From positions 13,518,001-13,582,000 of the forward strand of contig NC_087250.1 of NCBI RefSeq assembly GCF_037042905.1: DNA of 64,000 nt, read 5' to 3'. The position numbers and the translations under genes are program-made. The notes below the pieces were generated by a model. That model searched no databases. It was given only the letters and a program-made list of their open reading frames with translations, and was not told the DNA's origin. This DNA is from Lytechinus pictus. Taxonomy: Eukaryota. Positions 8,659 through 46,785 of this stretch are shown piece after piece; the stretch's first letter is position 1; every line of letters begins with the position of its first letter.

Positions 8659-8925
8659 CAGAGAAATTAGCAAATTAGCTTTAATTTGCCAATTAGAAAA
8701 TTGTAGATACAGTATGGGTTCAGAATATTACAGACTGCCTTTGCAATACAAAAGATCCATCGGTTCAAGGTTGTACCATCAGTCAAGACAGCGGAGAAAT
8801 TGGCAAATTAGCTTTAATTTGCCAATTCGAAAATTGTAGATACAGTATGGGTTCAAAATATTACAGACTGCCTTTGCAATACAAAAGATCCATCGGTTCA
8901 TGGTTGTACTATCCGTCAAGACAGC
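8659..8925 (+). repeat. Near-perfect tandem duplication, two ~130-bp units
   Basis: gagaaatt(a/g)gcaaattagctttaatttgcc...gatccatcggttca repeated at 8661 and 8794. Confidence 0.9.
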
Positions 8926-10242
8926 AAGTTAGCTCATAAATGGACTGACATCAAATGGGAGCATCCGAGTCATGTTACCAGAAAAGCCACTAGGATACAA
9001 CCTTGGTACAAATACTACAAAAAAGGTTCAATGGTGTACCAACTTACGTAGATTGAACCGTTCATAAGTCAAGACAGGAAGTTATTGAAGCTGATTACTT
9101 GACAAACATCCAATGCTGCGCTTCCTGTGGAAGCATCTTACCAGAATGGCCACTAGAACACAACTTTAGTAGAAAATGGTTCAATGGCATACCTACTTTA
9201 AATAGCTTGATCTGTTCATCAACCAGGACAGCAAGTTATTGAAGCTGGTGACTGGACAAACATCACAATGCTGCGCTTCCTGTGGAAGCATCTGGGTCAG
9301 GTTCCTAGAATAGCCACTAGGACACAACCTTAGTACAAAAAAGTTTAATTGGTGTACCCACTTGCATAACTTGATCTATTCATTAGTAAGGGAACCTACT
9401 AGTTAGCTCGTGAATAAACTTTAATCCAATGTTGCGCTACCAATGGTAGCCTCCTGGATCAGAATAGCCACTAAGACATAACCTTGACATACAGATCAAA
9501 AGATTCATGGTTGTACCCACTCATATAATTTGTTTTATCAGAATTGGCATCAAGTTGGCAGGAGAATGGGCATAGATCCAATTCTGTGATTCCAATGGGT
9601 GCCTCTCGATAATGTTCCCAGGCAGGAATAGCCACTAAATCACAGTAGATCCATAAGCTCATCGTTGCACCCAAATACACAGTTGGATCTGTTCATCAGT
9701 CAGGACAGCAAGTTGGCAGGTGACTGGACATTAAATCCAATACTGTGCTTCCAAAGCAAGCCTATTGTGCCCAGAGGAACAGTCACTAGATCACAACCTT
9801 GGTACACATTAGATCCATACACTCATCGTTGCACCCATTTACACATTTTAATCTGTTAATTAGTCGATGCAGCAAGGTAGCTTGTATCTCCAGGGTTGAA
9901 TGGACATACAGAATTTTGCTCCTATAAATAAAAGGCATAGATTATCTAAAATATTTTGCAAAAAAATAAATAATAAACATACATCCAGTGCTGTAATCTT
10001 GATGGGGAGCCTCTGGTTCCAAGGAACAACCTATAGATCACAACCTTGGTAAGCGGTCGATCCATACACTCCTCATTGCACCCATTTACACAGTTTAGTC
10101 TGTTATTGGTCAATGCAGCCAGGTAGCTTGTATCTCCCAAATTAAATGGACATACAGCCAGCGCTGTACTCCCGATGGGGAGCCTCTGGTTCCAAGGAAC
10201 AGCCAATAGATCACAACGTTCGTACGCGGTAGATCCACACAT
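8890..10242 (-). repeat. Tandem array (~8 units, ~160-180 bp) derived from the RFWD3 last coding segment plus start of the 3'UTR
   Basis: Recurring anchors (ca)caacctt at ~10212, 10039, 9792, 9479, 9323, 9160, 8997 and a deleted variant at ~9640; nearest copy translates [27 protein letters not shown]. Confidence 0.9.
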
Positions 10243-10398
10243 TCATCGTTGCACCCATTTACAGAGTTTAATCTGTTTATCAGTCAGTGCAGCAAGGTAG
10301 CTTGTATCTCCTAGGTTGAATGGACATACATCCAGGGCTGTACTCCCGATGGGAAGCTTCTGGGTGAGGCTACCTGAACTGGCATCCCAGGTAAATAC
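10243..10398 (-). CDS. RFWD3: RFWD3 last coding exon (13)
   Basis: [51 protein letters not shown] (TGA 10243-10245); ttctag acceptor. Confidence 0.95.
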   Translation of the reverse strand, partial: VFTWDASSGSLTQKLPIGSTALDVCPFNLGDTSYLAALTDKQIKLCKWVQR

Positions 10399-13300
10399 CT
10401 AGAAAGAAAACAAAATAGATTAAAGGCATAGGCTTACACAACAAATGCCTTTTTTTTCAAATACTAAAACTTAATTCATGTTGTACTTAATATTGAACAT
10501 ATGGATTTTGAAAAAAAAAACCTAAGTAAGAACAAATCTAATTCCTGCCGACACTTTCAAGATATCTGTGACTGAAAAAAATCATCATTTACTTAATCTC
10601 CTAGGGAGAGTAATATAAACATTATAGTGTATGGGATGAAATATAATTATGTGCTTTGTTGTTGTTTTAGCTTATATGGCACGTATCATTCAGCAGTGAA
10701 TATTTGCGCCTTTACTTACTGATAATGTAGCCTCATCTCAAGCACATTCAATTAATTTGTTATCATGGGGCGCAGGGAATATTATATAGCAGACTGTGTG
10801 AGCAGTTTCATTACAAAAAGTGTGAACATGAGACTAGATTGTTACCCTTTTACTTTGAGCTTTGAATCTCTATACTTACTGATGATGTGGCCTCATCTCC
10901 GGCACATGCAATTAATTTACTATCATCATGGGGTGCGGGGAATAGAGCCGACTGCGTAAGCAGTTTCATTGTAGTTCCACCAAAAAAGGTCTGAACGGAG
11001 TTACACGAGACTAGGCTGTTGCCCTGGTCTCCAACTGACTGTCTCTTCATCTCACACATCTATACACAAAAACATAACAAATAAATTGGCAATATCCTTT
11101 GAATATATTGCAAGAAAGATGATAAACACTGTACAACGCCTACTTAGATTGTTGTACGAAAGCAAATGGGAAGCTGTATGTGCAACATTTGTACCACAGG
11201 CTACTTAGCGTCCAAAATGTATTATATGACACCTAGATAGATCCTTGTCATTTGATTGGTTGGTCGATATCGTCATCAACCGTGCAATTTTAGATCCATT
11301 CATCGTGCAATTTTGGATCCATACGATTTTGTCCATTGCACGCGCGCACCGAGACAGCAGGCACCCCAAACTATCGCGCATGTTGTATGTACGCGATAAT
11401 CAACAGATTGAGCTCGCACTGCATAATTATGAGCATATTTTGCATCGAAATTTTCATCACAAATTTCATATGAAAAAGAATCTATTTTTAGTTGTCATAA
11501 AAACCAAATAATGAATGTTCTTTTCATTCGTGCAATGGACAGAATACTTCCTTCGGTGAAAGATGAAATGAACGACCAATTTCATCTTTCACCTCATGAA
11601 GTATTCTGTCCATTGCAGTCATAAACATTCATTATTTGTATACCATTAAATGGCTTAGGAGGTAACATCACAATAAATACATGCAGTTAGGCATAGGGCT
11701 TACTGGCTAAAAGCACCCTGCTACTTGAGGGATTCTGCTTTTCCCTTTCAATAACTCTTTCCTCATTTTTATAGATTAACATGATAAAACGATTTGGCAA
11801 AGGAAGCATCAAGTTTCATTGACTAGACACTTCGGGCAATATTAAAAAGTTGATAAAAAATATATTCCGATGCTGCAAGGGAACCCCCATTTCCGATTAG
11901 ACTATAGCTTAGCCTAGGTTATATAGGAGCACCTAACAAGGTGGGTATGTGCACTATATAAATCATATATTATCCTTTTATTAACTGTTACATTTCATGT
12001 TATTTAGAAAGATTGTGACATAGTGAATGGTCTACTGGCAAGGATTGCTATTCAGACGGCGTAAATTTCAAAATATTATTTGTTTCAATGACAATGATGG
12101 TGACAATGTTTGGGCTGAAAATGTGTGTGTAGTCCCATACATGTATTTCTGTGTGCAGCAGGGGAAAAGATTACATGGGGGCTTGGGAGGGATTTTGCCC
12201 CCTGAAATGGACAAAAGAACCCTTGAAAATAGAAAAGTGCCCTGAAAAAAACCCCATTCGCTGCAAAGTCCAAGCTTCCCCAGATTTAACAAATAAGTTG
12301 AAAAAAGGAGCCCCCATTTTTTTTTTTATATAAATTTTTGCCTGGTGTGAAGTGCACGTATTGACTTACCACATATCTAGCTGAGCGGTGATTCTTGGTA
12401 GGTCTGAATGAAGCCAGGCAGTGCCTGGTGCGGGGTTCAAACGCCACACCTGTACAACTTCCTGTTAATATAAGAAAAAAATATAAGATTTCCTTTCCTC
12501 TTCTTCTTCAAAAGAAATCAACCATACATGTAGTAGTAACATATATTCAGTAAGTTTTCTTGTATTGCCATTTATATACACATGCATCAGTGGACCAGCT
12601 TAGCCGAATCTTCATCAGAGCCCGATTGCACTGATTTGGTATTAGACCGTGTGGTACGATGAGAACAAATGGTATTATATAATGCTTACTTAGCTTGTTT
12701 TAGCAAGCAAATGGGAGGCTGAAAGTGCAACATTCATAGCGTCACACAATTACCTTCAGAATGCGCCTCTGCCAAGATAGGCGACTTCGCAGTACCATTC
12801 AATCAATTACACTGGGTTAATTCATAATGCAGGTTCATTACAAATATGCCTACCGCGCATGGTTGCTTAGGGGTAGAGTGTCCGCCTCACGAAAGAAAGG
12901 TTGTGGGGCTATCCCTGCAGTCATAGTAAAGACTTATATAAACGCAGTAAATTCGGCCTTATTGCTAGGTGATTAGATTAGAAAAAGGTAATATAACAAC
13001 ATGGTATGGTATGCAGGGCCTGCTGGTAAAACTGTTTCCTGACTGAAGAGGCTACCCCGTGGTAAAAAACATTATTTCTATTATTATGTTATATATTTTA
13101 TCCAGGGTAGCCACTTCAGTCCCAAACACTGCTCTCCAAGCGGGCCCTTCTACACATGTCACTATTACCCTGGATTTAGCAAGGCTACCTTGATTGGGCA
13201 CTTGAGCGTTCAAGGAATTTCTTCCTACCGGGTACCCGTTCAACTCACCTGGTTTAAGTGTAGCACAAAGTGGGTAAATTTCTTGCTGAAGGAAAATTAT

Positions 13301-16300
13301 CATCAATATTACTTGCTACGTGTGCATTGCTACTGCCGATATGATTCGGACGTGGATATGCTACTCAGGATTTTTTATTTCTGCTTTTTGCTTTCAATAA
13401 TTCTTTTTTCATTTTCACAGACAAACCAGGGGATTATTCTAGCTTTCTAACTTTCGAGGCGCACATACAACTCAATAAGCAGACATTCCTCTCCATGTAA
13501 TGCAGCGCACGACACTTGCACCGGTCCGACGGTCCAAGACCGGTAATAATTGCTGATGGGCCAGTAACTTTAAAAAATATCCAGATTTACTGGTCAAACA
13601 CGACCAGTAAATATTATCAAACTGATACAAATGGCATTTTCTTCTCTTTGTATTAAGTTTATTTTATAAAAATGGCTCTCTAAAACTGAGAAATGGCTCT
13701 TATGAATTATGTTGTTTGTTTGTGTACTTTTTTTGGGGGGTAACAATAAGCAATCAAAGAGAAAAAATAAACTCTAGCCTTGTTTTATATGTTTTGGGGG
13801 ACCAGTAAATTTTAGGTTTGGGCCAGTAAAAAATGGAAAAACTGTGGTATCTACTAGTCCGACATGATCAGGTTGGACCAGTAGAAAAAAAGGGTTAGTG
13901 TGGAGCCCTGTTCCAGATTCAACAACACAACTTATTAGGTGAATTGAATAGAGCATCATTCTTTCACTTCATTTGACATATTGTGCCATCGCACTCCTAC
14001 ATATTTGCTTTCAGACCACATGGTATAATTAGACCAAGTAGTAATAGATCATGTGGTACAATCAGACCAAATGACAATGAAGGATTAACTTCAAGTTATA
14101 GTTTATGAATCATGTACTCTTCACATGATAACTATTCCAAGAATTATTTCAATTAGACCAAGTGATGTTAGACAACCTGGTATTAGACCAAATGCCAATT
14201 GAGGCTTACCTTCAAGCTGTAGTTTATGAATCCTATACTCTTCACATGATTACTACGCCTTGAATTATTTTCATTAGACCAAGTGATGTTAGACCACCGG
14301 GTATTAGACCAAATGCCAATTGAGGCTTACCTTCAAGCTGTAGTTTATGAATCCTATACTCTTCACATGATAACTACGCCTAGAATTATTTTCATTGGAC
14401 CAAGTGATGTTAGACCACCGGGTATTAGACCAAATGCCAATTGAGGCTTACCTTCAAGCTGTAGTTTATGAATCCTATACTCTTCACATGATAACTACGC
14501 CTAGAATTATTTTCATTAGACCAAGTGATGTTAGACCACCGAGTATTAGACCAAATGCCAATTGAGGCTTTACCTTCAAGCTGTAGTTTATGAATCCTGT
14601 ACTCCTCACATGATAACTACGCCCAGAATTATTTTAATTGGACCAAGTGGTGCTAGACCACCTGGTACAACTAGACCATATGGCAAATAAGGCTTACCTT
14701 CAAGCTGTAGTTTATTAATCCTATACTCCTCACATGATAACTACTCCCAGAATTATTTTCATTCGACCAAGTGATGTTAGACCACCGGTTATTAGACCAA
14801 ATGCCAATTGAGGCTTACCTTCAAGCTGTAGTTTATGAATCCTATAGTCCTCAAATGATAACTACTCCAAGAATTATTTTCATTAGACCAAGTGGTATTA
14901 GACCACCTGCTTTTAGACCAAATGGCAATTGAGGCTTTACCTTCAAGCTGTAGATTATTAATCCTGTACTCCTCACATGATAACTACGCCCAGAGTTATT
15001 TTAATTGGACCAATTGGTGCTAGACCACCTGGTACAACTAGACCATATGGCAAATGAGGCTTACAATCAAGCTGTAGTTTATTAATCCTATACTCCTCAT
15101 ATAACTACTCAAACCTATTATAATTAGACCAAATGGTATTAGACCAAATGGCAACTAATGCTTACCTTCTAGCTGTAGCTTATGAATCCTATACTCTTCA
15201 CATGATAACTGCTCCCAGAATGAAGCACCTTCCAGAGTTCCAATGAGTATTCCTCCACAACTAAACAGAGGATATAAATAGTAAGATGTAATGGGACCGA
15301 TACTTTAAATTACTGAATGAGCTGATTAATGCTCAATTCAAAGAGCTGAAAGGCAATAATCAGAGCTGCAAACCTTTAAAAGTAAAAAGTATTAATCCAA
15401 GGGAGCGTTTCATGAAAGGACCTATCGGACGTTTTACTGGACAAATTCTGTTTTATTTGACAGTTACCATAGTTACAGTGCCTCTCAGCCAATCGAAATC
15501 CCAAAAGATGTCAGTTCTGAAAACTTGTCAGACAAAGATTTTGAAGAAATGCTCCCAACAAGCTCAAAAGTCACAATTTTTAGATAAAAGTAGTAAATCC
15601 ATACGTCTGATTTCTTCTCCTTACTTGTCATCAACACTGAAAATTCTTATTAAAAAAAAGGATCTTTTATTTTAAAGGCTCGCATTCGGAAGCATGACTT
15701 GCTCTTTTGCGTAAATCCATGATAAATCCAAGATTTGCACTGACAGCTGCAGTGAAATTCTGTCTGCGTACACCCACTACAATAGATTAAGTGTAGGTAC
15801 CGTTGGGGAGGCAGCTGTGTGTATTTGATATTGGGTCTCCTAGATCCAGATAGATCCCTTTTCCGGTCGGTGCTGGTCCCAACGTGTCCCCATAAGAGAG
15901 GTCTTCACATGGCTGATTTATTAAAATGACGGAATTCCGTGCTTATTTTACTTATTTCACAGCACTTGCAGTTGCACATTCTCTTTCAGAGCTATTTGAC
16001 ACATATTTTTATTCATACATGCAACACTTTGGCGGTCATTTTATTGGATTCTGTTCGGATTCATTTTGAGATCGTTACCACAACTGGTATTTATCTCGAA
16101 GCACTATGTAAATGCTGCATATTTACTACTTACGGAAGGGGATCTCCAGCCTTGCTTGGTACATATTTCAGAGACACAATGGGACACCTTGAGCCTTCTT
16201 TGGTTAGGGTCTTGACCTCGGTGTCCGTCTTACGAGTGTCGTAGATGACAACGGTTCCATTCTGTAGTCCCGCATATACATAGTTGGTGTTGGTTGTATT

Positions 16301-19300
16301 CCACGCACAGCACCAGGCAGGCATGGGGCAGGTGTACCTGGATGGTGATGGAGTAACAAAGCAATGGTTACACACAATCTTTGTTCTCCTTTTTATCCTA
16401 TTTTACACTATTTTTGGGGCAGAGCATGACAAAAAAACATAAATTTAAACCCAAATTTAATGGGAATCAGTCGATAGGGGCCCGAGATGTGGCTGTGTAG
16501 ATGCATAATTAGGCCTATGGAAATCAGTATAAGGGTTATTCCACGGTTACTCATGTTACATTTGGAGACACCTTGACTCATACTTGGAGCTGTAACTCCA
16601 TCATTATTGATAGGAACTAAACATCTCTTTATCACAACATAGTACGCAGTCTGACTATCCTTTGTATAAAAACAAAACTTGGGAAATTAGGCCTATGGAA
16701 ATCAGTGGGAGTTTGCCTGGTTCCAAACAATAATGAACAAGGCCAACTTATATAATGGGGCTCACTAAGTATTCATTGAGACATACCTTTGACCACCTTG
16801 AACAAATCAAACCCCCTTTCACGATTGATCACAAAATGGAGTGCCATCTATCGGTAGCAGCAAACAGGCCAAAGTTCCAACTATGGGGTCGACATCACGC
16901 ACACGCGCAGGCCACGCACAGTACTAGTGTACTGTAATGTGACTGTGATGCTTCGAAATTAAAACTATTTGGCAAAAGCAGAGAAGAATTCATTAAAATA
17001 CGGTCTAAATTTTGCAAAGAAATATGCAACAAATTTCTCTCCCACCTCCTGGACCCTATTAAGCAGCCGCTATGCAAAGCCGGTCGAGCTGCGTCGGCCA
17101 GCGCTGTGTAATCACATGCATGCACTAGCACACAGACGTAGATTTCTTCCCACGAGGCATTGCGAATTTCAGCCGGTACGCTGCAACCTATAGGTGGCGC
17201 ACCGTATCGCGAATCCACCACCAAATTATGGGGGGCCTGATGATGTGATCACGACTTACGATTGTACGACTGTGTTGCTTGCTAGACTTGTAATCTTGAG
17301 CGTCTTATCAACCGATGCACTCAAGAGAAGCCCGTCATCTCGTCCACTCAAAGACAATCCACGGATTGGCTTCCCATGGATAGGAATATACTGACATGAT
17401 TTGAAGTCCATTGCACTTATCTGAAAATAAATGGAAGAAAAAACAAACATTTGCAACTACAGTGATGCTTAAAAGTTAGTGAACCCCACGAGAAAACGAA
17501 CATATTCAAAGTGTTCAAGTCTGTCATTATTCTATTGTTAAGTCAGGTGATAAAATATGACATTCAATTAAGCTTGTTTCTCTGGGCTAGCCCAACATTG
17601 TGGTGTTGTTGTCTACATTCAACACTCAGCATGAAGGAGTGCATTTTATCTGAAAATAATGGAAGAAAAAAAACATTGACAACTACAGTGATGCTTAAAA
17701 TTTAGAGAACCCCACCAGAAAATGAACATATTCGAAGTGCGCAAGTCCTGCCATGTTTCTATTGTTAAGTCAGGTGATAAAATATGACATTCAATTAAGA
17801 ATATACACCTTCCAATGTACATACACAAACCAGGATTATAGTGTTTCGATAACAGATTCTTCAGTTATCGCAAGAACAAGGTAATTCAATGTATATAACG
17901 ACCTCTATGACCTTTGACCTCATGACTGCCCAAAAGTGGTTTAGTATGGTATAGAAACAAATGTATATTGACATGATTTGAAATCCATTTCACATATCTG
18001 AACATGAATACAAACAATGAAAAAAAGCAACAAAAATTCAAAATGGTTGGTTGTACACAGATCTGTGACTTGATGAGCATATGCCTCATTATCATCACAA
18101 ATTGAAATAGTTATTATCAAAATGAGCTCACAAGATGATGTTTCAAGCCCCAACAACTAAATAAGTAAATTTGGGCTGTGGTTTCTGCAGAATTCAGGGT
18201 GTAGTTATAAAGATATATTCTCAGGCCCGTATTCTGAAGTCGGGTTTAACTTAAACTGAGGTTTAAAGTTGTGGTTTAAGTATGGACAGCCAATCGTTAC
18301 ATCACTAACAGTAGAGATATATTTCATCTCATTTGGCTCTCAAATCATTCATAAAAGTGTAGGAAGTATAAATAGATTAAATTGTCTGCATCATGGATGA
18401 ATCAGGACAGAGCACAGTAAACACAAGAAACATACAACTTATTAAAAATTTTGACACTTTTGGCTTCCCATAATTTTAGCACAGAGTTAGACCATGGTCT
18501 AAGTTAAACCTGACTTCAGAATACGGGCCTCAGAGTCTAGCAAAATGACCACCAAATAAAGCTTACAGCCTAAACCACTCAATAGTATTGCTCGGGTTCA
18601 ATGACAATTGCTCCTGCAAAACTGGTCCTTCCGGAAATCCAAACATAAAGCTAAACTTCACACCTTACTCTATCCTCATATTGTACTCAACCAAACACCC
18701 TACCACATCCCCTACCCTCATCTCGTATCATCATGGAGGAGTGTGTACGTGTATCTGAGTTTTGTCAGACGTGTATCAATCAGATATGATTATTTACGTC
18801 TGGGACCGACCTTTAACGTCACCATCCGAAAGACGTGACCAGGGCTCGAACCTCAAACCTCTGCATCAATTTGTAACTTCCCCATATAGCTTGGATTACA
18901 GGCGCACACAACACCCAGTCATGGAGGAGCTATGGTAGCAGGAGCAAATATCGTATTAACATTGTTGCTTTGATTTAACAAAACAAAAACAGGTTTTACT
19001 GAAGTGATACAAATTTTATAATAATAATATTCAACATTTATATAGTGCTTAATACAATGTTTCGAAGTACTGCATACTATTACCCCGCATTTAGCATGGC
19101 TACCCTGATCGGGTGCATCGAGCATTCAAGGAATTCCTTCCTACCAGGTGCCCATTTACTACACCCGGGTGGAGAATGGCAAATCTAGATAACCATACCC
19201 AGGCATCGTAAATTTGGACTAAAAAGATGCGCAAGACTTCAAAGTAAAAAGTCAGTAAGCGGCTCGGTCAAAAAAAATTGTGCAGGAGCATTGTCACCAA

Positions 19301-22300
19301 AAATGTTGAGGGAGGCATTGATTCACCCCCCCCCCCCCCCCGGGCGGTTTAAGGGTTAAGATTGATCCCATCGCTAAAATCTAGCATGGTCACTGAAAAA
19401 GAACAATGAGTCATTAAATTTGCTGGTTTATTTCGTTGACAACAACTTATTTTTGTTTCTATTTTCCTTTTAATCAGCCGAGGGCCACCCAAAAGTGTTA
19501 TCAACCTTAAACAATCTGTCCGAATGCTGATTTATGTTTATTTGTATTGGTATGCAGAAATGGATTGAAATTCATGGATTTCTATGTTTCTTAATGGGCG
19601 TGACAATATTATTTTTACTGGTCATTTGTAGCCAGCAAATTCGGCTTAACATAGAAATCAAACTGTCCTAACAAAGACTTTTGCTGGCGGTCTTAGGGTT
19701 AAGATTGATCCCATCGCTAAAATCTAGCATAGTCACTGAAAAAGAACAATGAGTCATTAAATTTGCTGGTTTATGTCGTTGACAACAACTTATTTTTATT
19801 TCTATTTTCCTTTTAATCAGCCGAGGGCCACCCAAAAGTGTTATCAACCTGAAACAATCTGTCCGAATGCTGATTTATGTTTATTTGTATTGGTATGCAG
19901 AAATGGATTGAAATTCATGGATTTCTATGTTTCTTAATGGGCGTGACATTATTTTTACTGGTCATTTCAGGCCAGCAAATTTGGCTTAATATAGAAATTA
20001 AACTGTCCTAACAAAGACTTTTGCTGGTGTTTGTAGACCAGACCAGCGCCCAGTGACACAAATGAAATTATTTTGTAATTGACTAAGCGGAAGCGCCATG
20101 GTGTAGCGGTTATGACTCTCACCTTGTAATCAGAGGGTCGTGTGTTCAAATCCCACCATGGCCTAGCATCCTTGGCAAGGCATCAATCCACACTTTACCA
20201 CTCTCACCCAGGTGCTAATTGGGTACCGGTAGCAAACCGTCATTGTGGTTGGTTTAGCAAGCGTGCGCCTAACTGGCTGCTAATAAGCTATGAATCCAGT
20301 GACTGGGTAATAATAATTTTGAAACGCTTTGAGCAGTAGATTGAACTTGCGCAATATAAAATCCAATGATTATTATTATTATTGTTATTACAATCCCGAG
20401 AGGATGGAATTTACCTTCTTTAATCCAAATCCCTGAAAGAGTACATTAGTTGAGGGCATAGAAGCTAGAAGCAGTTGGTTTGCGGCATCGTAAGTCATCA
20501 CACGACAGTTACCATTCTATTAGAACAAAATATATAAATACATACATGTATCAAACATCTTAACCCTAAAAAGACTGGGGGGGGGGGCTGATTCAGCCCC
20601 CCCCCCCTCGACATTTTTTGCGATAAATCTGCAACCCGAAAAGCTGGCGCCGCGCCGTTCCTTGACTTTTTTCTTTCAAGTCTCTCGCAACTTTTGAGAC
20701 CAAATTTGCGACGCCCGGGTACATGGTTCCGAAATTACGCAACATTTTGTAAGTGCATGTCGACCCGAAATTGCTCAAAAACTTGAATTTGTGTACAAAT
20801 CCAATGCAAATTGTGTTTTTAGCAAAAATTCATAAATGTATCATTATTTTCAATTTTACTAATCAAACTCAATTAATTTCATCTTGTTTATGGTCAAAAT
20901 AATGTAGCGGACGATTTCCATTGAAAAAATAATAAAAAACAAAAAGTCGAAAAACAGAGAAATAGATAAGAAATTTTAAAAACAATAAAATACATAAGAA
21001 AAGAATTGTGATATTGAATTTTTTTTAAAGTACATTTGATCAGAATCCTTCAAAGAGTCTGTGAATAAAAAATTAGCAGTTTAGAGGCCTTATTTAGTTA
21101 ATTAGAGCAAATCTTTGATTTTAGCATAAATTAGCATAATTAATGAATTATGAGATTTTTCGGAAAATTTGATCCTACAGTCTTGGAGATTATGCTATGG
21201 GTAATGCCCGTGCCAATTTTCGTCGTGATCGCGCGGTCAACGGCCGAGATCATAGGGGGGGGGCAGAATCAGCCCCCCCCCCCCCCCCCAGTCTACTTAG
21301 GCATCAAAATAGCCCAGTCTATTTAGGGTTAAAAGAGTTTCATTCATGAATGAATGAATTAATGAAATGACTATAGATCATTCATGAAATGAATGAACTA
21401 GATACTATAGTGGTAATAAGCAAACACTCAATTTTACCACTAAACATGCTACATTTTATATACAATTGAACCTGCAACAGCTATCACCTGTATAGAAGAA
21501 ATATTCAACTATAAAGACCATTTTTTTTTCCCCTGGGATATATTTCCCAATTGAAACAGAAACCTGTTCATATTTTGATTATCTCTCTTGGTCTGGTAGA
21601 TGTTCATGAAGCTGTTCATTAAGTTACAAACGACTTTATGCACGATTGGCATGTGTTAGGTGCAGCTCCTATGTCAGTTACATCTCATACAAAGGGATCA
21701 TTTGCTCACAAGAAAGGATCACCAGACTTGCACAGAGTCAATCGCAACTTACAAACAGATTTTTGAAACACCCACCTGGGTTTCGTCTAACAAAGATTTG
21801 TGATTGATCCAATCAACCACAACTATGGAAAGCCAGCAACGTCAATATCTAAAATGCATGTTTGGTCACAATATTTTCTAGATATAATGTTAAGTCATAC
21901 ACTCATTGTTTTCTTGAAAATTCTGTGTAATTCTCGCTGCTTATGAGTTTCCTGTTGAAAGAATTTATGACATTGATGGATATCCATATAACTGATGTAT
22001 ATCCAAATAACTGATGTTAATTGGATCAAATGAACTCTTTGTAGACGGAGCCCAGGTCTGTATTAAAGTCTTTTGCACAAAAGAAGAACAGGTAATGAAT
22101 TTACCAGTAATTCTTGATGAATGCTGGGTAATTTCAGCATACTGGTATGTACAGTGGATTGCGTAAATCATGATCACGTATGAAAAGATACATACATGTA
22201 CATTACCTAATGACATCTGACATAGTCATTTGACTGATCTTGGGCCCGTTGCAGAAAGAGTTGCGTTAAAACGCAAGTCAAAAAATCAATCGCAAGTCAC

Positions 22301-25300
22301 AAATGCGCGCTGTTGATTGGTTGAAAATCAAGTTATGCGTGAATTTTAGAGTTGCGATTGATTGCAACTCTTTCTGCAACGGGCCCCTTGTGATATAAGT
22401 GTACATTATGCTATATCATGTGACTAATCATGTGATATTTACTGTACAGTACATATGGCTTATCACATGACTGATCATGTGATCTGTCTGTAAATTACAC
22501 TATATCATATGAGTGATCATGTGACAAAACTGTACATGATGCCATGTCATGTGAATGATCATGTGATATACAGTAACTGTTCATATCATGCGACTGATCA
22601 ATGAGATATAACTGTACATTTATGCCATGTCATGTGACTGATCATGTGATATACATACCGGTGATACTTGTATTGTCTTGTCTAGTATGTAATGACCAGC
22701 TGGCCTGCCATGTGATTGCTGGTTGCTACTGGATGATATGCTAGACAGTGGACTGCATTCAGAATGAAACAAGACAAGGTTTCATGATTAATAAACTCAG
22801 AAAAAAACATTAAGAACTAATGCTAGAACGAAACAACATTTAAGTATAATTTTTTATCTATTGTCCATAAATGGAAATTTGTCTTGTTTACATGCCGTGC
22901 AAAAACATCATGAATATTATATAAATTTATACACATGTAACATGAACAATGCAATCTACATTTGGAACATGAAAATAAACATTAATATTACATAGTAATA
23001 AGTCATGGCAGTGTTTTAAATAGCGAAGGCATTTGGTGAGTTTATTGCAATTATCTGAATGAAACCGAGAATGTGGATTTTAAATGACCACCTGTGACTG
23101 ACTGTCTATAGGTAAAGAAATTAGCGGTTAACTACAGCAAAGGAAGTACAATAACTTAGCCTAAAATTACTAAGCCTTCACGGCTAGTCTTTTAGCTTCT
23201 ACAGTCTTTTCTGGTTTCATTATATTTTGCTTCCTTCAAATTTGAAATAGTTTCTACAATTGATATTTATCTCAAACTACTCTAAATCAGACTTATTTAC
23301 ATGTACCTAAACCCAACTCTGTGATATCACGAAATCTAATTTAAAAACTGACCACAATGATTATCACCAACACAGATAAGCATAAGAGGGACAGTGCATT
23401 GATATTGCTTGGAAAAAGCCCAAAATATGGCTGGAATACCATGCCTGTTTTGTCAAATTTTCAGCAATTAGGGTCATTTTCGTTGATACCAGAATTATTT
23501 GGCACTCATTTTATCATTCATTCACAATTTGGTGGTCATTTTATATTGGATATTACTCGGATTATTAGATTGTTAAATTAATTATGTTAGATTGATAAAT
23601 TATGATACAGAGATCCATAAGAGTACAAATCAAATCATATATAATCGTTAACTTTGGACATATTTTCATATTCATTGCAAAACAAAACATGTTTCAAGGA
23701 CATTAATGATAACTAAATTTTCAAAATTTTGAACTCCGAAAGATAATCTCTTCAATCTCAATTTATATATGATACATGGACAAAATATTGAAATACAGAA
23801 ACAGTTTTATAAATGAGAATATATAATGAAAATATCTATACAGTCCCACATACTCACTTTCGTGATGTTGACTGTTGATGAGATTCAAAGATTGCTTTCA
23901 TCCTCTTCACTTCTTCCAGTGCCATGACGTACCTAAGCTGTGTCTGCGCAGCGTCCATCTCCGCCTTTTTTCTTAAATCTTTCTCTCTTTCAAGCTCTCT
24001 ATAATCACACAATGAATAAAGGGGGAAAAGCAAATAAATGGTGGTGACGATTATGATGATCATGAGAAGATGTCTGTACGTAGAAAACATATTGGCAAGT
24101 CTCTCACCCTGTAATAAAGTGTAAGCCCTGAAAAACGAATTTTCATCCTCGGCAAGGTACAAGGCAATATGATTAATAACCAGAGGACATAAGACTTAAG
24201 GTCCTCTCTGAGGGACATGGTAATGAGGATAAAACCTTCTCAAAAGGGCACTAGCACACTGACTGTTAATGTAATTTGGGATACTTTCTCACTTAACACA
24301 ATTTACATAATGGAAAAGGACTTCACTTTTTGCTGCTCCAAGGTACTGTCTGCTCGCTTGTAATACCATGAACAACCCAGTAATCTCACCCTGTCTGTGT
24401 TCAGTTTCATAAGGACTTGTTATAGTAACAAATGCACAATTTCTATGACAAGTCAACCATCAGCCAATCAAATTGATGTATTTCAGTAGCTTTTAACCGT
24501 TATTGAAAATTTGTTATTCCAATAAGTTCCATGAAATGGGCCACAGAAGATGGATCAACATCGATCAGCACCCAAATACAATCTTTCTTTTATCAATTAC
24601 TACAGACTAATTTAGGTTCCCACACTAATCAACTTCTGGTTACCTTCAGGGGTGTGAGTGGTCACAAATAAAAAGATCTGAAAAAAGCTGAAGAGTGTTG
24701 AAAAAGTCTGAAATAGAAAGAGCTCCCATACTTTTTGTACAGAGGAAGGCCAAAAATAAGCTGAAATTAAGCTGAAAATCAAAACAAAAAAATCTGAAAT
24801 CAGATAAAAATCTGAACTCTCACACCCCTGTTTACCTTGTAATTCAAAAAGTTTAATGAACTTTGGGGAAAGAACCTTTGCTCGTGCATGCCCTACATCG
24901 CAAAGTAGCCTTCCTAAAGACATTAAAAAATTGTCTTAGAAACTCCTCGGAACGATATTTTTTACATTCGATTCCTAGTTCTTTATGGGCCTTGATCACT
25001 TTACAGAGTGAATTTGGTACTTAGCAAGTCACATGATTATTATCTGAAGAGGGATTAACTCTACCAATAGCTTACTAAAAACAAATTCCATAGGGATGTT
25101 TCATAAAGAATTTAAGAGTCGCACTTAAATCTTAGTAGCGTGCGGTATATAACACATCACCACAATGGTCAGATTATGCGCATGAGTCGCAGTACCAAGT
25201 ATCCGTCAATCAGAGTAATTGTTTAAAGGACAAGTCCACCCCAACAAAAAGTTTATATGAATAGAAAGAGAAAAATCCAACAAGCAGAACACTGAAAATT

Positions 25301-28300
25301 TCATCAAAATCGGATGTGAAATAAGAGAGTTATGACATTTTAAAGTTTCGCTTAATTTCACAAAACAGTTATATGCACATCCTGGTCGGTATGCAAATGA
25401 GGAGACTGATGACGTCATCCACTCACTATTTCTTTTGTATTTTATTATAAAAAATATGAAATATTCTGATTTTCTCCTCATTGTCAATTGAAATGATAAT
25501 TCCTCCCTGAACATATGGAATTAGCATTGTGTAATTTACTAAATGGTTCAGTCAAGTTGGTCCATATTGCCAAATTTGTAAAAAGTGAAATATTGTATAA
25601 TTCAAACAATAAAAAACAAAAGAAATAGTGAGTGAGGGACATCATCGACTGTCTCATTTGCATGTCACTGAGTTGTGCATATCATTGGTTTTTTTAAATA
25701 AGCGAAACTTTAAAATGTCATAACTTTCTTATTTTACATCCGATTTTGATGAAATTTTCAGTGTTGTGCTAGTTTGATTTTTCTCTCTTATTCAATTCAA
25801 CATTTTCCTCTGGTGGACTTGACCTTTAATAACATGGGCGCATCAGCAATTAAGCATGACTCTCAACTTCTAAGTCAACTCTATCTGAAACGCCCCCAAG
25901 GTGTAACAATACTTACTTTAATGCTCTATCCCGCTCAGATGTATCAAGAACTTTGAGTGCCTTGGCGTAGATCACTCGGACATCTGACCTCTTGGCCTTG
26001 CTGTTGCATTGTGGGCATTTACCACCTTGACCTTTCAGCCATTGCTCAATACAGCTGAAAATAAGAGAGAAAGGGAAACAGGATACAAGAGCATCATTAT
26101 TATTACCATCATCGGTGTGTTGGCTCGATTGGTAGAGCGTCCGTCTCAAAACCGGAAGGTCGGAGTTCAAACCCTGGCCGCGTCAGACCAAAAGACGTTA
26201 AAAGATGGGAGTTGCTGCTACCCTGTTTGGCGTTCAACGATTAAAGCGATAGAGCCTTGTCGATCTGGCGCTGCACAGCGGCTGCCGGGCCAACAATCAA
26301 TTGAGCAAAACAAATTTTCAGAGTATTTCATTTCTTATGTCTATTTCGAACAATAAAATATTCATTTTCATTTTTTCATCAAAATCATCATCATTGTCAA
26401 AATTTATCATCATCATCAGGGCCCGGAACAAACACCCTTTTTGCCATTTTATTGTTCACCAGGGTAATCAATTTAAATCTTTCAAGAAATTGAGATTCCT
26501 GGATTATCAGAAATAATAAAAATAAGATGACCTATTTGGATTCCCTACCCATGGTCTCACATAATAAGTGAGCTAACTCAGTCGAGTGTCTCAGTATAGC
26601 GCCCGTGTCATGCCCATCAACACAGATGAATGATGCATGGTCGCTGCGACTGTGACATTGATGTCTTAGAATTCATTAAATTTTAGTATAAATTTCATTT
26701 GTTATCTTGCACTTTGCTGTCAGATATCAAAGATGTTCCTTGTTCTTTTGATAATCGAATGTCTTGAATCGCTAATCAACATCTGGTGAACATTCTTTTA
26801 GTTTAAAAAGGAGTATTCAGTTGTTGATTGTTTGTAAACTGATTGAATGCATTAAATTGGTAGAGTTTTACTCCCAGGCCTAGCATCATAACCCCAGTTT
26901 ATGTCAGGGAGTTGGTAGTTTCAGTCTTTTTTTTTGGGGGGGGGGGGTATTTTTTAAGTTTGGGCTTTACCACTGCAATTTAGCATGCTTACCTCTGGCC
27001 AAAAAGATGGCCGCAGCGAAGTGAAACAAGACGATGTGAGCCAGACGTCGTCCACGACTCGTAACAGATAATACACGATTGCTAGAATTATCAAAGAAAG
27101 AGAGGCAAAGATAGATAAAATACATGTAGACAATACATGATGGCTGGGATACGAAAACCTGTTAAAGTATGCCTAGCAATCGAGTTTGAAAACTGTTGTT
27201 GGATTACTCCCAAGGGAGAGGAGAAAGTGCATGCAATGTGGAAGCGTCGAGGTGTACCGTTTCTGACTCTCGCCTTGTAATCAGAGGGTCGTGTGTGTTC
27301 GAATCCAACCATGGCATAGCGTCATTTGGCAAGGCATCAATCCACAATTTGCCACTCTCCACCCAGGTGTTAAATGGGAACCAGGTAGGATGTGAAAGCC
27401 TATGTAGTATGCCTAGTAACTGAGTCTGCAAACTCTTGTTGGAATAGTTCCCAGGGAGTGGAGAAATTGTATACGTTTTATGACCGAGGTAATAACATAT
27501 CTGTAAAGCGCTTCAAGAAGTCACTCTGATGTATTAAGCACTATATAAAAGCGGATTATTGTTGTTTGCGGGCAAGCCTCAATCCCATTGCCGTGGTAAT
27601 ATCTGTTAAGCACTTGAAGACATTATGATGTATTAAAGCGCTAAATAAAAGCAGATTGTTATCATCATCATCATCATTTGATTAATTTAATTAAATTTTA
27701 TAGTGACGTCACCTTTTCCCCGACTTGTGCAACTTAACATTATGGACGGTTAATTTTGGATGGTACGTGTGAAACGGTACAAATGTCTAACATTCAGACT
27801 CCCATTTGCTCACGTACAACAAGCTAAGTAGGCGTTGTACAATTTACTAAAGAGTGAACATTTTATCATACAATATCACTGGACTATATGAACTCAAATT
27901 ATAAAATTATCCCTCATGCAGGTCTATTTCACCTCAGGCTTCGGTCTCGGTGAAATGTACTTAGGATAATTTTATATTTGTCGTACAGATAATCCAGTAT
28001 ATTCTACAATAGATTTTACACTATATAAGAGAAATAGGCAGGGATAGCAACATCTCTTTGAGGGTTAAACAACATGTACGATGCCCCTGTGTATTGTCCT
28101 ATTCTATCTGCAGACAATAAGGCCTGCGATGCAATTGCACTGAGATAGGATTGGCAACTTGATGCAATGGGAGCTTAGTGCAATCGCATCCCATAGTGTG
28201 CACTGGGCTTTATGGGTCCTACATGTATTTCAATATATAGATTTGAATCAGTGATACATGTAGGCCGCGCGCCACACTGGCACCGGTCCGACGGTCCCAG

Positions 28301-31300
28301 ACCGGTAAAAATTGCTGTCGGGCCAGTAACTTTTCAGAAATAGCTGGTTACTGGTCCAACATAACCAGTAAACAATATATCACAATGATACAGTGATATT
28401 TTCTTCTCTTTTATAAATTATAAAAATGGCTCTTGCATCCCCCAAAATGGCTCTGGCATCCCTAAAAATGGCTCTCTTTAAAAATTGAGAAATGGCTCTG
28501 ATGAATTATGTTGTATGTGTGTGTGGACCGTTTTTTTTGGGGGGGGGGGGGGATAACAATAAGCAATAAAAGACAGCAAAACAAGCTCCGGTCTTTTTTT
28601 ATGTTTTTCTGTATTTTGAGAGACCAGTAAAGTTTAGGCTTGGACAAGTAAACTGGGTATCTACTGGTCCAATATTATCAGGTCGGACCAGTAGAAAAAA
28701 AGGGTTAGTGTGGAGCCCTGGTGTGGGTCAATACGCCCTCACACTATCATAGCTGTAAGGCTCCCACTCATTCTAGATTTCTAGATCACCTCACTGAATT
28801 CAACTATGTTGTATTGTAAACCTGTAAACTGTGGCATTACATCCACTGAGGTGACGTGACGTCACTCGCTGCTTATAAGTTGTGTAATCGGGAAGTTTCC
28901 TTGAGGTATGCACTAGGGTGTAGGCGTTGATTGCATGAAACGCTTGCTGTATTTTTCACAGATTTTTCTATAATTATGTAGACGGATCAGAGCTGCAGCA
29001 AGCATTGTGCATTAATCATTAAACATGGATGCAGACTCTTAACGGTGAATCTACATCTATAGACTATATTGCCTACTCTATCTTAATAAATAACATTTCA
29101 ACTTCGCTTTGAAACTATATTTTTCCCTCAGCTCTGCATGCTTCAGGCAAAATACAACCCCTTGGGAACACCATAGGGGAAATGAAATGTTACATGTATT
29201 CAAACTCTAAGAAGGCAGTATCTGTATTTCTGTATACTTACAGATTCGTCATCGCTACCGCTACCGTCACTTCCTGATTTGCATGCACCGGCTCCTGGTT
29301 TCTTTGGTTCCTGAAAGTCAGCCATAGAGTCATTACTACTTTCATCCTCTGTCATTGTCTCCATTGGTTCATCATCATCTCCATCCTGATTGGCTGACGC
29401 TCCATGCATATCATTAGCTTCTGGCCTCTGGTTGGTTGCTGTGCTTTGAGGGTCAGTGCTATTTGATAGCTGCACTCCATCATTATTTGAACTTTGACCT
29501 CTAAGAGCATCGGAGGAGCTCTGACCTTGAGGAACATCAGATAACCTTTGACCCCCATCAACAATGGATGAGGATCTATTACCATCTCTCTCCAAAGTTC
29601 CTTGAGAAGCTGAAGCTATTCGTGTCTGTGATTGGTCAGAAGTTCTTGGCTCATTTGCATGTGCATTTGAGCTGGCAGCTGATTGGCTAGTTCTGAAAGT
29701 TTGCAGGCCACTGGGCCCAGGAATATCTACATCAGGCACTCTGTCTTGTCTGGATTCAACTGGATTTAACCGGCTCTCACTTCTCTGGTGAGGAAGCATC
29801 AGAAGTGATTCGCTGTCTGATTGCGACCCTTGACCTTGATCTTGAGTAGGGTCAGCGGGATGGGATGAATCACGTCCCTCTTCCTGCCCAAGTCTTGTCG
29901 GTGATAAACCTCCCTCTTGTTCCTGCATGGGTAACAAATAATATAAGAGGACCGCTTTCACAAAGATAATGCACGTACAGTGTAAACATATGTTAACCAA
30001 TGGGGGATCAGAGATTTCATAAATGAGGGAGTACAAACAGCATTTCAGAATTCCTTGACAAGCAACAACAACAAAAATCATATTTTCCTTCACAAAAAAG
30101 GCAAAATCTGCTTGTTGTTCCCAAAATTCTGACAACATTTAAAGGCACTGATGAAAGGGGTGAGACAATGCCAATTTTGGCAAGAACCATTACATGTACC
30201 TCTAAAATTTGTCAAATTTGAGTCAAGAGAAATCTCAGAAAATGGCTATAACAGAACCAGAAGATTTGTTTTCACACAGAAATGTGTGTCTTTGATGTAG
30301 TTTATTCCACAGAATATATATTAGCATATATGTCCAACCTTGGCCCTAGTAGAGTACCTTTCAAAAAAAAATCAGTGATTACCGTACTGTGATTGTGAAC
30401 CATTAGACTTAGAGATTGACAAGGCTCTACATACATGTACAGTTGAGGCCAGAAATTTACATACACTCAGAAAATTTCAAAGAAAAGTTGACACTTGCCA
30501 AACATAAAATGACTTTATCTTATAAAATATTTGTGCTATCATGACGAATTTGAATTGAACAAATGAGTATGTCATGCCCCTTCATTGCACTGCTTTGTCA
30601 TCAGGAGCTGAATAATATTTAGGTGTCATTTTTTCCCCGAAATTTTTCATATTTTAGACAAATTAGAAATAAAAACTTGATAAAAACATTTCATATTTGT
30701 GCTTCTAACTTCTCAACACAAACTTTTTTGTTCAGTGGTGACAGATAGAAAATGTAATATCAAGCATATATTTGACATTTATATATTTCTATGAAACAAT
30801 GTTTGAAAATATAATAATAGAATACATTTGGCATGAATATTACTTTTTTTCTTCAAAGGAAATTTCACTTAAAATATACTTAAATCCCAACAGCATCCCA
30901 ATCATGTGAAAGAGCTTAATACGCTCTTTCATTTGATACGAAATTCGTCATGGCAGTATTTATATTTTTGAAGATAGTAAAGTTTACGATGTTTGGCAAG
31001 CGAACAAATTTCACTGAATTCCATGTCAAAATCTGCAACATTGGATAAGCTTCATCAGATGAATGGGTTTTTTTTTTTTAGTTTCTCTTTTAAGCATTTC
31101 AAGGGCAACTCCACATCACCTACTGGCCAGCTCCGGTGTAATTCTTTCCCTGCTTTGCAAGGAGTGCCATTTTTGCGTCCCCCCCTTCTCTCTCTCTTTC
31201 TCTCTTAATTCACTCTCTCCGTATATTTTTTTTTCTTTCAATATTGAAAATGTTATGCAAACCTGATGGTGTTCATGATCCTGTGATATTTCTGTAGCAT

Positions 31301-31379
31301 CTGAATCATATAGATCTTGATCACTTTCGATGAGGATGGTCGAACCATTATCATCTTCATCAGAATCACCGTGATCCAT
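10243..31379 (-). CDS. RFWD3: E3 ubiquitin ligase RFWD3, whole spliced CDS: join(31263-31379, 29242-29922, 26993-27081, 25917-26054, 23858-23998, 22659-22752, 20415-20516, 17260-17420, 16134-16337, 15166-15260, 12370-12461, 10880-11059, 10243-10398); 2250 nt, 749 aa
   Basis: Manual splicing gives GT-AG at all 12 introns with consistent phases. RING ([44 protein letters not shown]), coiled coil, and WD40 region ([55 protein letters not shown]) match RFWD3 as I recall it. Confidence 0.96.
10713..10847 (-). pseudogene. Decayed copy of RFWD3 coding exon 12 with intact donor
   Basis: acttactgataatgtagcctcatctcaagcacattcaattaattt... aligns to acttactgatgatgtggcctcatctccggcacatgcaattaattt... (10874 onward) with indels. 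Confidence 0.9.
10880..11059 (-). CDS. RFWD3: RFWD3 coding exon 12
   Basis: MCEMKRQ...[43 protein letters not shown]; atag acceptor, gtaagt donor. Confidence 0.95.
12370..12461 (-). CDS. RFWD3: RFWD3 coding exon 11
   Basis: [31 protein letters not shown]; aacag acceptor, gtaagt donor. Confidence 0.95.
13503..13910. mobile_element. hAT-like MITE; second copy at ~28262-28720
   Basis: Both share caccggtccgacggtcc...gaccagtagaaaaaaagggttagtgtggagccctg. Confidence 0.75.
14030..15165 (-). repeat. Minisatellite of 9 ~120-bp units, each the 3' half of RFWD3 exon 10 plus splice donor plus intron start
   Basis: ggcttaccttcaagctgtagtttatgaatcctatactcttcacatgataact at ~14085, 14203, 14324, 14445, 14566, 14691, 14812, 14933, 15058; matches exon 15166-15220. 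Confidence 0.96.
15166..15260 (-). CDS. RFWD3: RFWD3 coding exon 10
   Basis: [31 protein letters not shown]; gtttag acceptor, gtaagc donor. Confidence 0.95.
16134..16337 (-). CDS. RFWD3: RFWD3 coding exon 9 (WD40)
   Basis: [35 protein letters not shown]...[11 protein letters not shown]; ccag acceptor, gtaagt donor. Confidence 0.96.
17260..17420 (-). CDS. RFWD3: RFWD3 coding exon 8 (WD40)
   Basis: [53 protein letters not shown]; tttcag acceptor, gtaagt donor. Confidence 0.96.
17417..17799 (+). repeat. ~150-bp direct repeat of the exon 8 acceptor and intron end
   Basis: 17417-17572 aligns with 17646-17799 (ttatctgaaaataa...tgacattcaattaag). Confidence 0.9.
17915..17997 (-). pseudogene. Decayed copy of the 5' part of RFWD3 coding exon 8 with acceptor
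   Basis: ttcag|[11 protein letters not shown] versus real tttcag|[11 protein letters not shown], followed by indels and a stop. Confidence 0.8.
18224..18529. mobile_element. PIF/Harbinger-like MITE, same family as 7037-7325
   Basis: TIR ggcccgtattctgaagtc, 3-bp TSD TCA. Confidence 0.9.
18715..18920 (-). mobile_element. SINE with Deu-domain-like core
   Basis: Minus strand ggttcgagccctgg (B box) followed by gtctttcggatggtgacgttaaaggtcggtccc. Confidence 0.6.
19344..20027 (+). repeat. Near-identical tandem duplication, two ~340-bp units
   Basis: agggttaagattgatcccatcgctaaaatctagc... at 19352 and 19695. Confidence 0.95.
20088..20385 (+). mobile_element. tRNA-derived SINE; relatives at ~27240-27560(+), 34890-35185(+), 13080-13295(-), 19020-19190(-)
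   Basis: A box ggtgtagcggtt, B box gttcaaatcc, core ccttggcaaggc...cacccaggtg...gggtaccgg, (att)n tail. Confidence 0.82.
20415..20516 (-). CDS. RFWD3: RFWD3 coding exon 7
   Basis: [34 protein letters not shown]; aatag acceptor, gtaaat donor. Confidence 0.94.
20564..21328. mobile_element. piggyBac-like MITE; fragment at ~19198-19358
   Basis: TTAA|ccctaaaaagactggg ... cccagtctatttaggg|TTAA. Confidence 0.88.
22242..22386. mobile_element. Small MITE
   Basis: TIR gggcccgttgcagaaagagttgc / gcaactctttctgcaacgggccc. Confidence 0.85.
22390..22652 (+). repeat. Degenerate short tandem repeat (catgtgactgatcatgtgatat motif)
   Basis: Repeated atcatgtga core abutting the exon 6 donor. Confidence 0.8.
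22659..22752 (-). CDS. RFWD3: RFWD3 coding exon 6, linker and start of WD40 region
   Basis: [31 protein letters not shown]; tgcag acceptor, gtatgt donor; phase 2 to 0 fits neighbours. Confidence 0.88.
23858..23998 (-). CDS. RFWD3: RFWD3 coding exon 5, coiled coil
   Basis: [23 protein letters not shown]...; atag acceptor, gtgagt donor. Confidence 0.93.
25227..25825. mobile_element. TTAA-targeting (Kolobok-like) MITE
   Basis: TTAA|aggacaagtccacc...ggtggacttgacct|TTAA; same family as 55150-55752. Confidence 0.88.
25917..26054 (-). CDS. RFWD3: RFWD3 coding exon 4, RING second half
   Basis: [45 protein letters not shown]; tttcag acceptor, gtaagt donor. Confidence 0.96.
26113..26360 (+). mobile_element. 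tRNA-derived SINE (Nin-domain-like); older relative at ~12853-13060
   Basis: tggctcgattggtagagcg A box, gttcaaaccc B box, then ccaaaagacgttaaaagatgggagttgctgctaccctg. Confidence 0.8.
26993..27081 (-). CDS. RFWD3: RFWD3 coding exon 3, RING first half
   Basis: [29 protein letters not shown]; ctag acceptor, gtaagc donor. Confidence 0.96.
29242..29922 (-). CDS. RFWD3: RFWD3 coding exon 2, S/Q/D-rich disordered N-terminal region
   Basis: Inside ORF 29200-30138; acceptor ccatgcag, donor gtaagt; 227 codons, several SQ/TQ motifs. Confidence 0.88.
31263..31379 (-). CDS. RFWD3: RFWD3 coding exon 1 ([10 protein letters not shown]...QDHEHHQ); exon acceptor at 31400
   Basis: Acceptor cttctctttaatacag before 31400, ATG at 31379, donor CAG|gtttgc; phase 0 joins the next exon. 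Confidence 0.75.
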
Positions 31380-36811: not shown

Positions 36812-37230
36812 TCAATTCAATTCTTTTATTTCATTTCCATTCAAAACATAATACAAAGTAATATAAAGTAATACAAATCAAGTACAATTTTACAGAAGGG
36901 CATTCTTACTTCGTAAAAAAACACAGAAAAAACAGTATAATATAGAGCATAAATGGAAATGAGGGGATCCACTAAAAAGCAAAGCTTGTAAAGTGTGGAT
37001 TCCCCTTGGAAATGAAGAAAGTATAGTAGACTTATTCTTATATGCGTACATATATGTATTACAGGAAATAAAAAGAGAACAAAAGAAATCATACGGATGC
37101 AAATATGATTACTGAACAAATGCAAAGCTTTTCACACAATATTGTAATTGAATGAAACAATTCCTTTGAAATATAGTTTTAGAAACAGATAGGCCTCGAG
37201 GGGAAAATATCCAGGATGAAATAGAACTTA
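36812..37230 (-). mobile_element. CR1-type LINE 3' UTR and tail fragment
   Basis: (ttcaa)n tail and aaaaagcaaagcttgta motif shared with the LINE 3' end at ~46990. Confidence 0.55.
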
Positions 37231-37232
37231 GC

Positions 37233-44569: not shown

Positions 44570-44571
44570 TG

Positions 44572-46704: not shown

Positions 46705-46785
46705 TTGGATAAAATTACCATGATTTCCATAAGTAAACCAATTGGAATGTCTAGTCTTTTAGGGAAGTGTATAGGGAGTCGTCAA

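Follow-up and report, generated by a model that had tools for sequence, protein, structure and literature searches.

A nine-copy minisatellite over the exon 10/intron 10 junction of RFWD3 in Lytechinus pictus

When a gene carries several copies of one of its own splice donors, are the copies used, do they regulate the gene, or are they silent? The question is raised by a 64,000-nucleotide stretch of the Lytechinus pictus genome (NC_087250.1, positions 13,518,001 to 13,582,000; hereafter the window, to whose positions all coordinates refer), where the start of intron 10 of RFWD3 is taken up by nine repeats of ~121 bp, each copying the last 56 nt of exon 10 together with its donor. A preliminary description of this DNA offered two explanations, a set of decoy U1 sites tuning a DNA-repair E3 ligase or simple neutral amplification. 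Our analysis favors the second, a neutral tandem amplification that has produced a junction-spanning minisatellite with silent pseudo-donors, and we give this reading a probability of about 0.8.

The RFWD3 gene and its repeated exon 10 donor

The host gene lies on the minus strand. A model of 13 coding exons (31379-10243) was built with guidance from sea-urchin RFWD3 proteins and the human RFWD3 chain 6cvz, and encodes an intact protein of 749 aa that is identical at 749/749 residues to the RefSeq L. pictus protein XP_063957023.1 and 95.7% identical to a 746-aa L. variegatus protein (P0001). The L. variegatus protein matches PF23419 with an E value of 2e-138 over residues 407-742 of its 746 residues, and matches RING families as well. 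Exon 9 matches RFWD3 proteins of sea urchins, with 6 hits in a set of 19 candidates, and the human chain 6cvz as well. The host is a full-length RFWD3 orthologue, with a RING finger and an RFWD3-type WD40 domain. Intron 10 is 2704 nt long and in phase 1, and its first base, directly after the AAG of the exon 10 donor, is at position 15165.

Other L. pictus RefSeq entries for RFWD3 (P0010, P0008, and P0009) differ in extent: one of 576 aa ends at exon 9, one of 111 aa holds exons 12-13 only, and one is near full-length and differs from the window's model at 19 residues. Judged by their protein sequences, these extra entries suggest fragmented or second-haplotype annotation combined with high polymorphism. 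Residue 605 (codon 605, window 15166-15180) is Gln in both L. pictus models and in Diadema, and His in L. variegatus and S. purpuratus; the Gln codon at this position is present in 8/9 array copies.

Tandem Repeats Finder places the array at 14064-15221, with a period of 121, 9.7 copies, 86% matches, and a score of 1516, and reports a higher-order period of 367 bp over the same array; a repeat of this quality is far above chance expectation. The first unit of the array spans the authentic exon 10/intron 10 boundary, and the splice signal is repeated in many, not all, of the units that follow. The exon-derived part of each unit corresponds to exon 10 positions 40-95 (56 nt, template 15221-15166). 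Intact pseudo-donors reading AAG|gtaagc are present in five of the nine copies (at 14818, 14697, 14451, 14330, and 14209) and are identical to the real donor from -3 to +6, and the GT is retained in 8/9 copies. A CAG codon of the exon reads TAG in 9/9 copies, its position being displaced by a 3-nt deletion in copy 1. The preliminary description had given a ~120-bp unit in nine copies built from an RFWD3 exon/intron junction, with ~55 nt of the exon 10 end copied, five donors with intact gtaagc, two with gtaaag and the two outermost altered, and the Gln codon CAG changed to TAG in the copies; the measured period and exon part and the unit-by-unit reading agree with it throughout. The parts of the gene and of the array that matter here are the following.

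10243..31379, minus strand: complete coding region of RFWD3 in 13 exons, encoding 749 aa, model identical to RefSeq
12370..12461, minus strand: RFWD3 exon 11, whose acceptor at 12461 partners the exon 10 donor (gene model)
15166..15260, minus strand: exon 10 of the RFWD3 coding sequence, 95 nt long and part of the WD40 propeller (model, RNA depth, and exon 9-10 joint)
15117..15165, minus strand: authentic donor AAG|GTAAGCAT and the first 49 nt of intron 10, with an in-frame TAG at +9..+11
14993..15116, minus strand: copy 1 (124 nt), damaged donor ATT|gtaagc at 15064, hit at -2/-1 (unit alignment, U1 pairing)
14871..14992, minus strand: copy 2 (122 nt), AAG|gtaaag at 14940 (unit alignment)
14750..14870, minus strand: copy 3 (121 nt), nearest intact pseudo-donor, AAG|gtaagc at 14818, 347 nt past the real donor
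14626..14749, minus strand: copy 4 (124 nt), AAG|gtaagc intact at 14697, apparent sister of copy 1 (unit alignment, tree)
14504..14625, minus strand: copy 5 (122 nt), AAG|gtaaag at 14573, insertion shared with copy 2 (unit alignment)
14262..14503, minus strand: copies 6 and 7, each of 121 nt, with AAG|gtaagc intact at 14451 and 14330, apparently the youngest duplication (one-base difference)
14141..14261, minus strand: copy 8 (121 nt), AAG|gtaagc intact at 14209 (unit alignment)
14019..14140, minus strand: copy 9, decayed edge unit with AAG|ttaatc at 14088, without GT, 68-80% like the others

Consequence and use of the copied donors

Reading past the true donor (GGT AAG CAT TAG) leads, as had been noticed before, to an early stop, which we place at codon 611. 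Whichever of the nine sites is used to extend exon 10, translation would end at this same stop, 90-1066 nt upstream of the new junction. The TAG of the copies has no bearing on such extension, since intron +9..+11 already supplies an earlier stop. The truncation would remove ~140 residues from the end of the WD40 domain. A stop so placed triggers NMD under the 50-nt rule of mammals, a rule that we carry over to urchins by assumption. The expectation that a downstream donor, used by extending exon 10, would yield a truncated product or an NMD target is thus upheld for all nine products. Extension to the first intact copy would require an exon 10 of 442 nt.

Pseudo-exon use and recursive splicing were also considered and set aside. 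Pseudo-exon use offers options of 43-49 nt, which shift the frame and meet stops at codons 611-613, and a 50-nt option in copy 1 with a stop at 655. An in-frame option of 30 nt exists in copies 6-8, but its acceptor would have to be an AAG, with pyrimidines at 9-11 of 20 positions. For recursive splicing at AAG|GT, the preceding YAG and the pyrimidine tract were absent on inspection.

Donor strength does not explain why the copies should be silent: the predicted U1 pairing energy is -9.5 kcal/mol for the real donor and the five intact copies alike. The donor of copy 1, at -4.3 kcal/mol, is the weakest GT donor measured and lies below all 12 real RFWD3 donors. At 37 C, opening the real donor is predicted to cost 2.0-2.7 kcal/mol versus 3.1-6.2 kcal/mol for the five intact copies, values that fall inside the spread of the real RFWD3 donors (0.3-8.9 kcal/mol). 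The candidate TAG acceptors in the copies have 7-10 pyrimidines in 20, versus 13-19 at the 12 real acceptors. Elsewhere in RFWD3, outside the array, there are 14 further donor-like sites with at least 8/11 U1 matches.

Donor choice was examined in two of the three raw RNA runs of the species (X16 and X17, about 6% of each run), with reads aligned to 15117-16556, a segment that includes the real donor and the 49 intron bases that every exon extension crosses. The exon 9-10 joint was read 6 times in X16 and 14 times in X17. Sense depth over the copied end of exon 10 was 10.8 in X16 and 19.4 in X17, versus 11.3 and 21.5 over the uncopied part, and this equality weakly disfavors abundant pseudo-exons. 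No sense read was found at 15155 (intron +11) in either run, with ~30 reads at the exon end and the array status of the animals not established; these ~30 reads, taken without NMD inhibition, put the 95% upper limit for read-through in steady-state RNA at about 10%. In X17, depth was 0 over the 48 nt that follow the donor. In X16 the first intron bin had a mean depth of 2.9 sense and 0.75 antisense, from reads that fall where a further run, X7, has a high-copy match and whose sense members do not cover 15155. Depth in the unique intron bins was zero in the RNA runs; pre-mRNA was therefore not sampled, and the bound on retention is weak. Six synonymous differences between the RNA animals and the window are listed in 204 nt of exon 9.

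The RefSeq protein XP_063957023.1 uses the first, authentic exon 10 donor, and KLQLEG|SCTG is joined at this donor in both full-length L. pictus RefSeq models, although such gene models are no independent proof of splicing. The RNA reads show, weakly, that RFWD3 is spliced mainly at the authentic exon 10 donor.

Array history and the competing explanations

All copies share marks that distinguish them from the real junction, namely the TAG, a T at -5 (A>T), a C at +7 (A>C), and an intron part that is 15 nt longer, and therefore the array either grew from a single derived unit or was homogenized separately from the exon. Units 1-3 and units 4-6 have the same length pattern of 124/122/121 and 341/370 columns in common. 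A shifted register, units 2-4 versus 5-7, gives a similar value (334/367 columns), so the case for a duplicated three-unit block is carried by the lengths and shared indels. Both gtaaag copies most likely represent a single mutation duplicated within that block. Copies 6 and 7 differ by one base. Support was below 80% for six of the seven inner branches of the unit tree, and the history that can be read is therefore limited to the kinship of copies 1 and 4, the triplet block, and the copy 6/7 pair. Divergence from the consensus is 20% and 25% in the edge units and 2-11% in the inner units, that is, a homogenized center with diverged edges, as in tandem-repeat turnover.

The donors have changed at the rate of the unit as a whole. 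Parsimony assigns 6 events to the 10 donor columns versus a mean of 6.2 per 10 columns of the unit, and the events per column are 0.60 in the exon-like part and 0.63 in the intron-like part (p=0.91). Events in the exon-like part fall on the three codon positions without bias (8/12/11), and 4/9 donors are damaged where 4.7 are expected from unit divergence. In this within-array test, which has low power with nine related units, purifying selection was not seen on the donors, nor on the exon-like part as coding sequence; the splice sites are likewise not conserved above background, as those of decoy exons are, in the same low-power comparison. Selective crippling of the nearest copy was considered and rejected: at its overall divergence of 20%, copy 1 would be expected to carry a donor change with P=0.89.

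A contig of run X1 contains the unit-to-unit boundary seen at 14630-14651, and it is not counted as independent support because X1 may relate to the assembly's own sample. In the DNA-like run X7, from a second organism (organism B), the summed depth, which is not a copy number, is 330 over the copied part of exon 10 versus 73 over the uncopied part and 72 over exon 9, which hints that several copies are present there too and that the array is possibly older than one species. An exact scan of the JGI metagenomes with a 28-nt piece of the unit gave 0 matches, and Rfam over 12400-16400 gave a single sub-threshold chance match (PK-repBA, 20.3 bits versus a gathering score of 45). None of the papers listed in a literature search, which covered few subscription papers, dealt with the RFWD3 array.

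The RFWD3 array is a further, echinoderm example of a repeat type already described in human and amphioxus genes. Junction-spanning minisatellites are reported for human F7, LMNB2 (100 bp x 10-15), PDGF (81 bp x 16-18), CBS, and 6-16 in the available text of PMC1557585, according to which only the first donor is used in F7, LMNB2, and PDGF, and two pseudo-donors are used as well in CBS and 6-16. The LMNB2 intronic and PDGF intron 4 repeats resemble that of RFWD3 in their long unit and in a junction repeated ~10 times, with the authentic donor only in use, as far as that text goes; RFWD3 differs from them in being an echinoderm gene, and in its 121-bp unit with 56 nt of exon, its divergence of up to 32%, its three-unit block, and the alteration of 4/9 donors. 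Splicing of F7 selects the furthest upstream among identical donors and falls back on the rest only once that donor is lost, and the 37-bp VNTR of intron 7 has a demonstrated length polymorphism of 5-9 units (PMC1557585, Borensztajn et al. 2006, in the part available). Its first unit also lies over the exon/intron boundary and is followed by functional-looking pseudo-donors, but it takes in 4 nt of exon per unit and its donors are identical (same part of PMC1557585). The CBS intron 13 VNTR and the 6-16 (IFI6) intron 2 minisatellite likewise have many pseudo-donors at a junction-spanning repeat; the available text reports the use of two, whereas in RFWD3 the two proximal copies are weakened and use was not seen in shallow RNA (PMC1557585).

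The amphioxus 'mirages' of Adh3 and of the globins BflGb6 and BflGb9 have units of 150-160 bp over an exon boundary with 81-100% unit identity, and in the portion of PMC3087553 consulted they are described as leaving splicing undisturbed, with a homogenized center, excluded edges, and haplotype length differences. Like the RFWD3 array they occur in a marine invertebrate deuterostome and combine exon-boundary units with edge decay; BflGb6 copies an acceptor and BflGb9 has one donor-side duplicate, in contrast to the nine donor-side copies of RFWD3 (PMC3087553, same portion). Decoy exons, for example, in SF3B1 intron 4, are highly conserved cassettes that promote intron retention according to excerpts of PMC6097662. 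The RFWD3 copies share with them the look of splice sites within an intron of >1 kb, whereas they show no conservation signal, have poor acceptors, and are not accompanied by visible retention (PMC6097662, excerpts). Repeat length can influence splicing in humans, as stated in the accessible part of PMC10078293.

Neutral amplification fits the unit-wide mutation rate of the donors, the lack of observed read-through (weakly bounded), and the RefSeq models that use the first donor. The earlier suggestion of decoy U1 sites tuning the ligase fares badly on the same evidence, the donor columns being no more conserved than the unit and no sense read reaching +11. Stated in full, as a selected regulatory array whose decoy sites or exons hold intron 10 or divert transcripts to NMD, with copy number setting the RFWD3 dose, it is very improbable. 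Five intact donors in a 2.7-kb intron do fall into the size class of decoy-exon action (PMC6097662, excerpts), and the X7 depths, although not a copy number, hint at several copies in a second organism. Against this, the donor columns lack excess conservation, intron 10 retention was not seen in sense reads, and RFWD3 has several further decaying exon-edge copies; known decoy exons, in the excerpts of PMC6097662, are highly conserved with acceptors that bind U2AF, whereas the RFWD3 units have poor acceptor tracts. We also give very little credence to the more elaborate proposal that the array predates the split from the second species, still varies in unit number, and acts as a poison-donor cassette tuning RFWD3 through NMD. 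If it were true, DNA damage or certain stages would shift splicing to the intact copies and thereby to NMD, unit number would set the dose of an RPA/RAD51-linked repair ligase, and the two nearest copies would have been crippled by selection against constitutive leak.

An unselected leak of the CBS/6-16 type is unlikely, if less far-fetched. A few percent of transcripts would extend exon 10 or include a poison pseudo-exon of 43-49 nt, stop at about codon 611-613, and be degraded, with the corollary that alleles with more intact proximal copies would lose slightly more RFWD3 mRNA. Such leak products would be hidden in steady-state RNA because the premature stop lies at least 90 nt upstream of the junction in all extension products, and the RNA bound is only about 10%. 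The five pseudo-donors with full-strength U1 pairing speak for a leak, as does the use of two proximal pseudo-sites in CBS and 6-16 (PMC1557585, available text); yet in RFWD3 the nearest copy is the weakest GT donor (-4.3 kcal/mol), the second reads gtaaag, and the first intact copy is 347 nt away and demands the 442-nt exon, while read-through was not seen in the RNA runs and the acceptor tracts of the copies are pyrimidine-poor. That misassembly created or inflated the array is scarcely credible. With copies 6 and 7 one base apart the count is possibly off by one; the units, however, are 68-99% alike and have a nested three-unit structure, which misassembly does not create, and a unit boundary is present in the X1 contig, possibly linked to the assembly sample.

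Neutral amplification could have proceeded as follows. A single local duplication would have taken in the final 56 nt of exon 10 together with the start of the intron, where short ~15-nt sub-repeats may already have been present. The duplicated unit would then have gained several substitutions (CAG>TAG, -5 A>T, and +7 A>C). Its later multiplication, by slippage or unequal crossing-over, would have involved a three-unit block on one occasion and copies 6/7 as the latest step, with the edge units escaping homogenization and decaying. Exon 10 would be recognized as reaching from its acceptor as far as the earliest donor, for which there is mammalian precedent. The pseudo-donors would remain silent, the copies having no good acceptor, the two nearest being weakened, and the intact ones being a predicted 1-4 kcal/mol less accessible. 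Occasional slips would stop at codon 611 and then be removed by NMD, and the array would be tolerated without a selected function.

On this most likely reading the array has little wider importance, being one more instance of a known repeat type, with modest value as a natural test, in a species kept as a laboratory urchin, of 'first donor wins' outside mammals. If the pseudo-donors were used in a regulated way, or according to copy number, the array would be one of few junction minisatellites to serve as a dosage dial on a DNA-repair gene; we found nothing in favor of such a role.

Other exon-edge duplications and nearby repeats

Two further exon edges of RFWD3 have been copied locally, and by sequence comparison these copies appear to have arisen in the same manner as the main array.

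10710..10812, minus strand: single copy of the end of exon 12 with its donor, 79% identity, TCA|GTAAGTAA kept (sequence comparison)
17746-17646 (88%) and 18009-17964 (87%), minus strand: acceptor region of exon 8 copied at two places in intron 7 (sequence comparison)

Local duplication clusters span a splice junction in 3/6 cases within the RFWD3 span. This is not a significant enrichment at junctions, with P=0.31 under free placement and P=0.09 under constrained placement; the cluster at the last exon was excluded from the test, as it extends beyond the gene span. That cluster, at 8661-10363, consists of several decaying copies of the end of the last RFWD3 exon and downstream sequence, with 71-88% identity, past the stop codon. 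At 22389-22655, a ~85-bp three-copy repeat starts 4 nt past the exon 6 donor, the donor itself being uncopied.

Several dispersed repeats lie in or near the gene. At 15117-15154, the ~15-nt sub-repeat of the unit's intron half matches a sequence of very high copy number in X7 (summed depth about 30,000, one inserted base), and the intron part of the unit may be related to a dispersed repeat family. In intron 9, high-copy dispersed repeat pieces at 15357-15548 and 16029-16124 draw most of the aligned reads, on both strands. Related inverted-repeat (MITE-like) elements were found at 25216-25789 and 55017-55965, the second of which has tandem repeats of 16 and 42 bp at its flanks, and a near-perfect inverted repeat with 225-nt arms, 96% complementary, and a 21-nt spacer is present at 37215-37685.

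The distal part of the window, 44332-64000, contains a block of 7-8 kb about three times, with 95.8-97.5% identity. Each copy of the block carries a rhodopsin-family GPCR frame, and reverse-transcriptase fragments lie in or beside it. The GPCR frame at 60542-61780 is open over 412 codons (7tm_1, E 1e-23), that at 45485-46704 is split across two frames, and that at 52561-53793 has an in-frame stop. As far as the similarity of its copies indicates, the block could be a real tandem expansion or a set of uncollapsed haplotypes.
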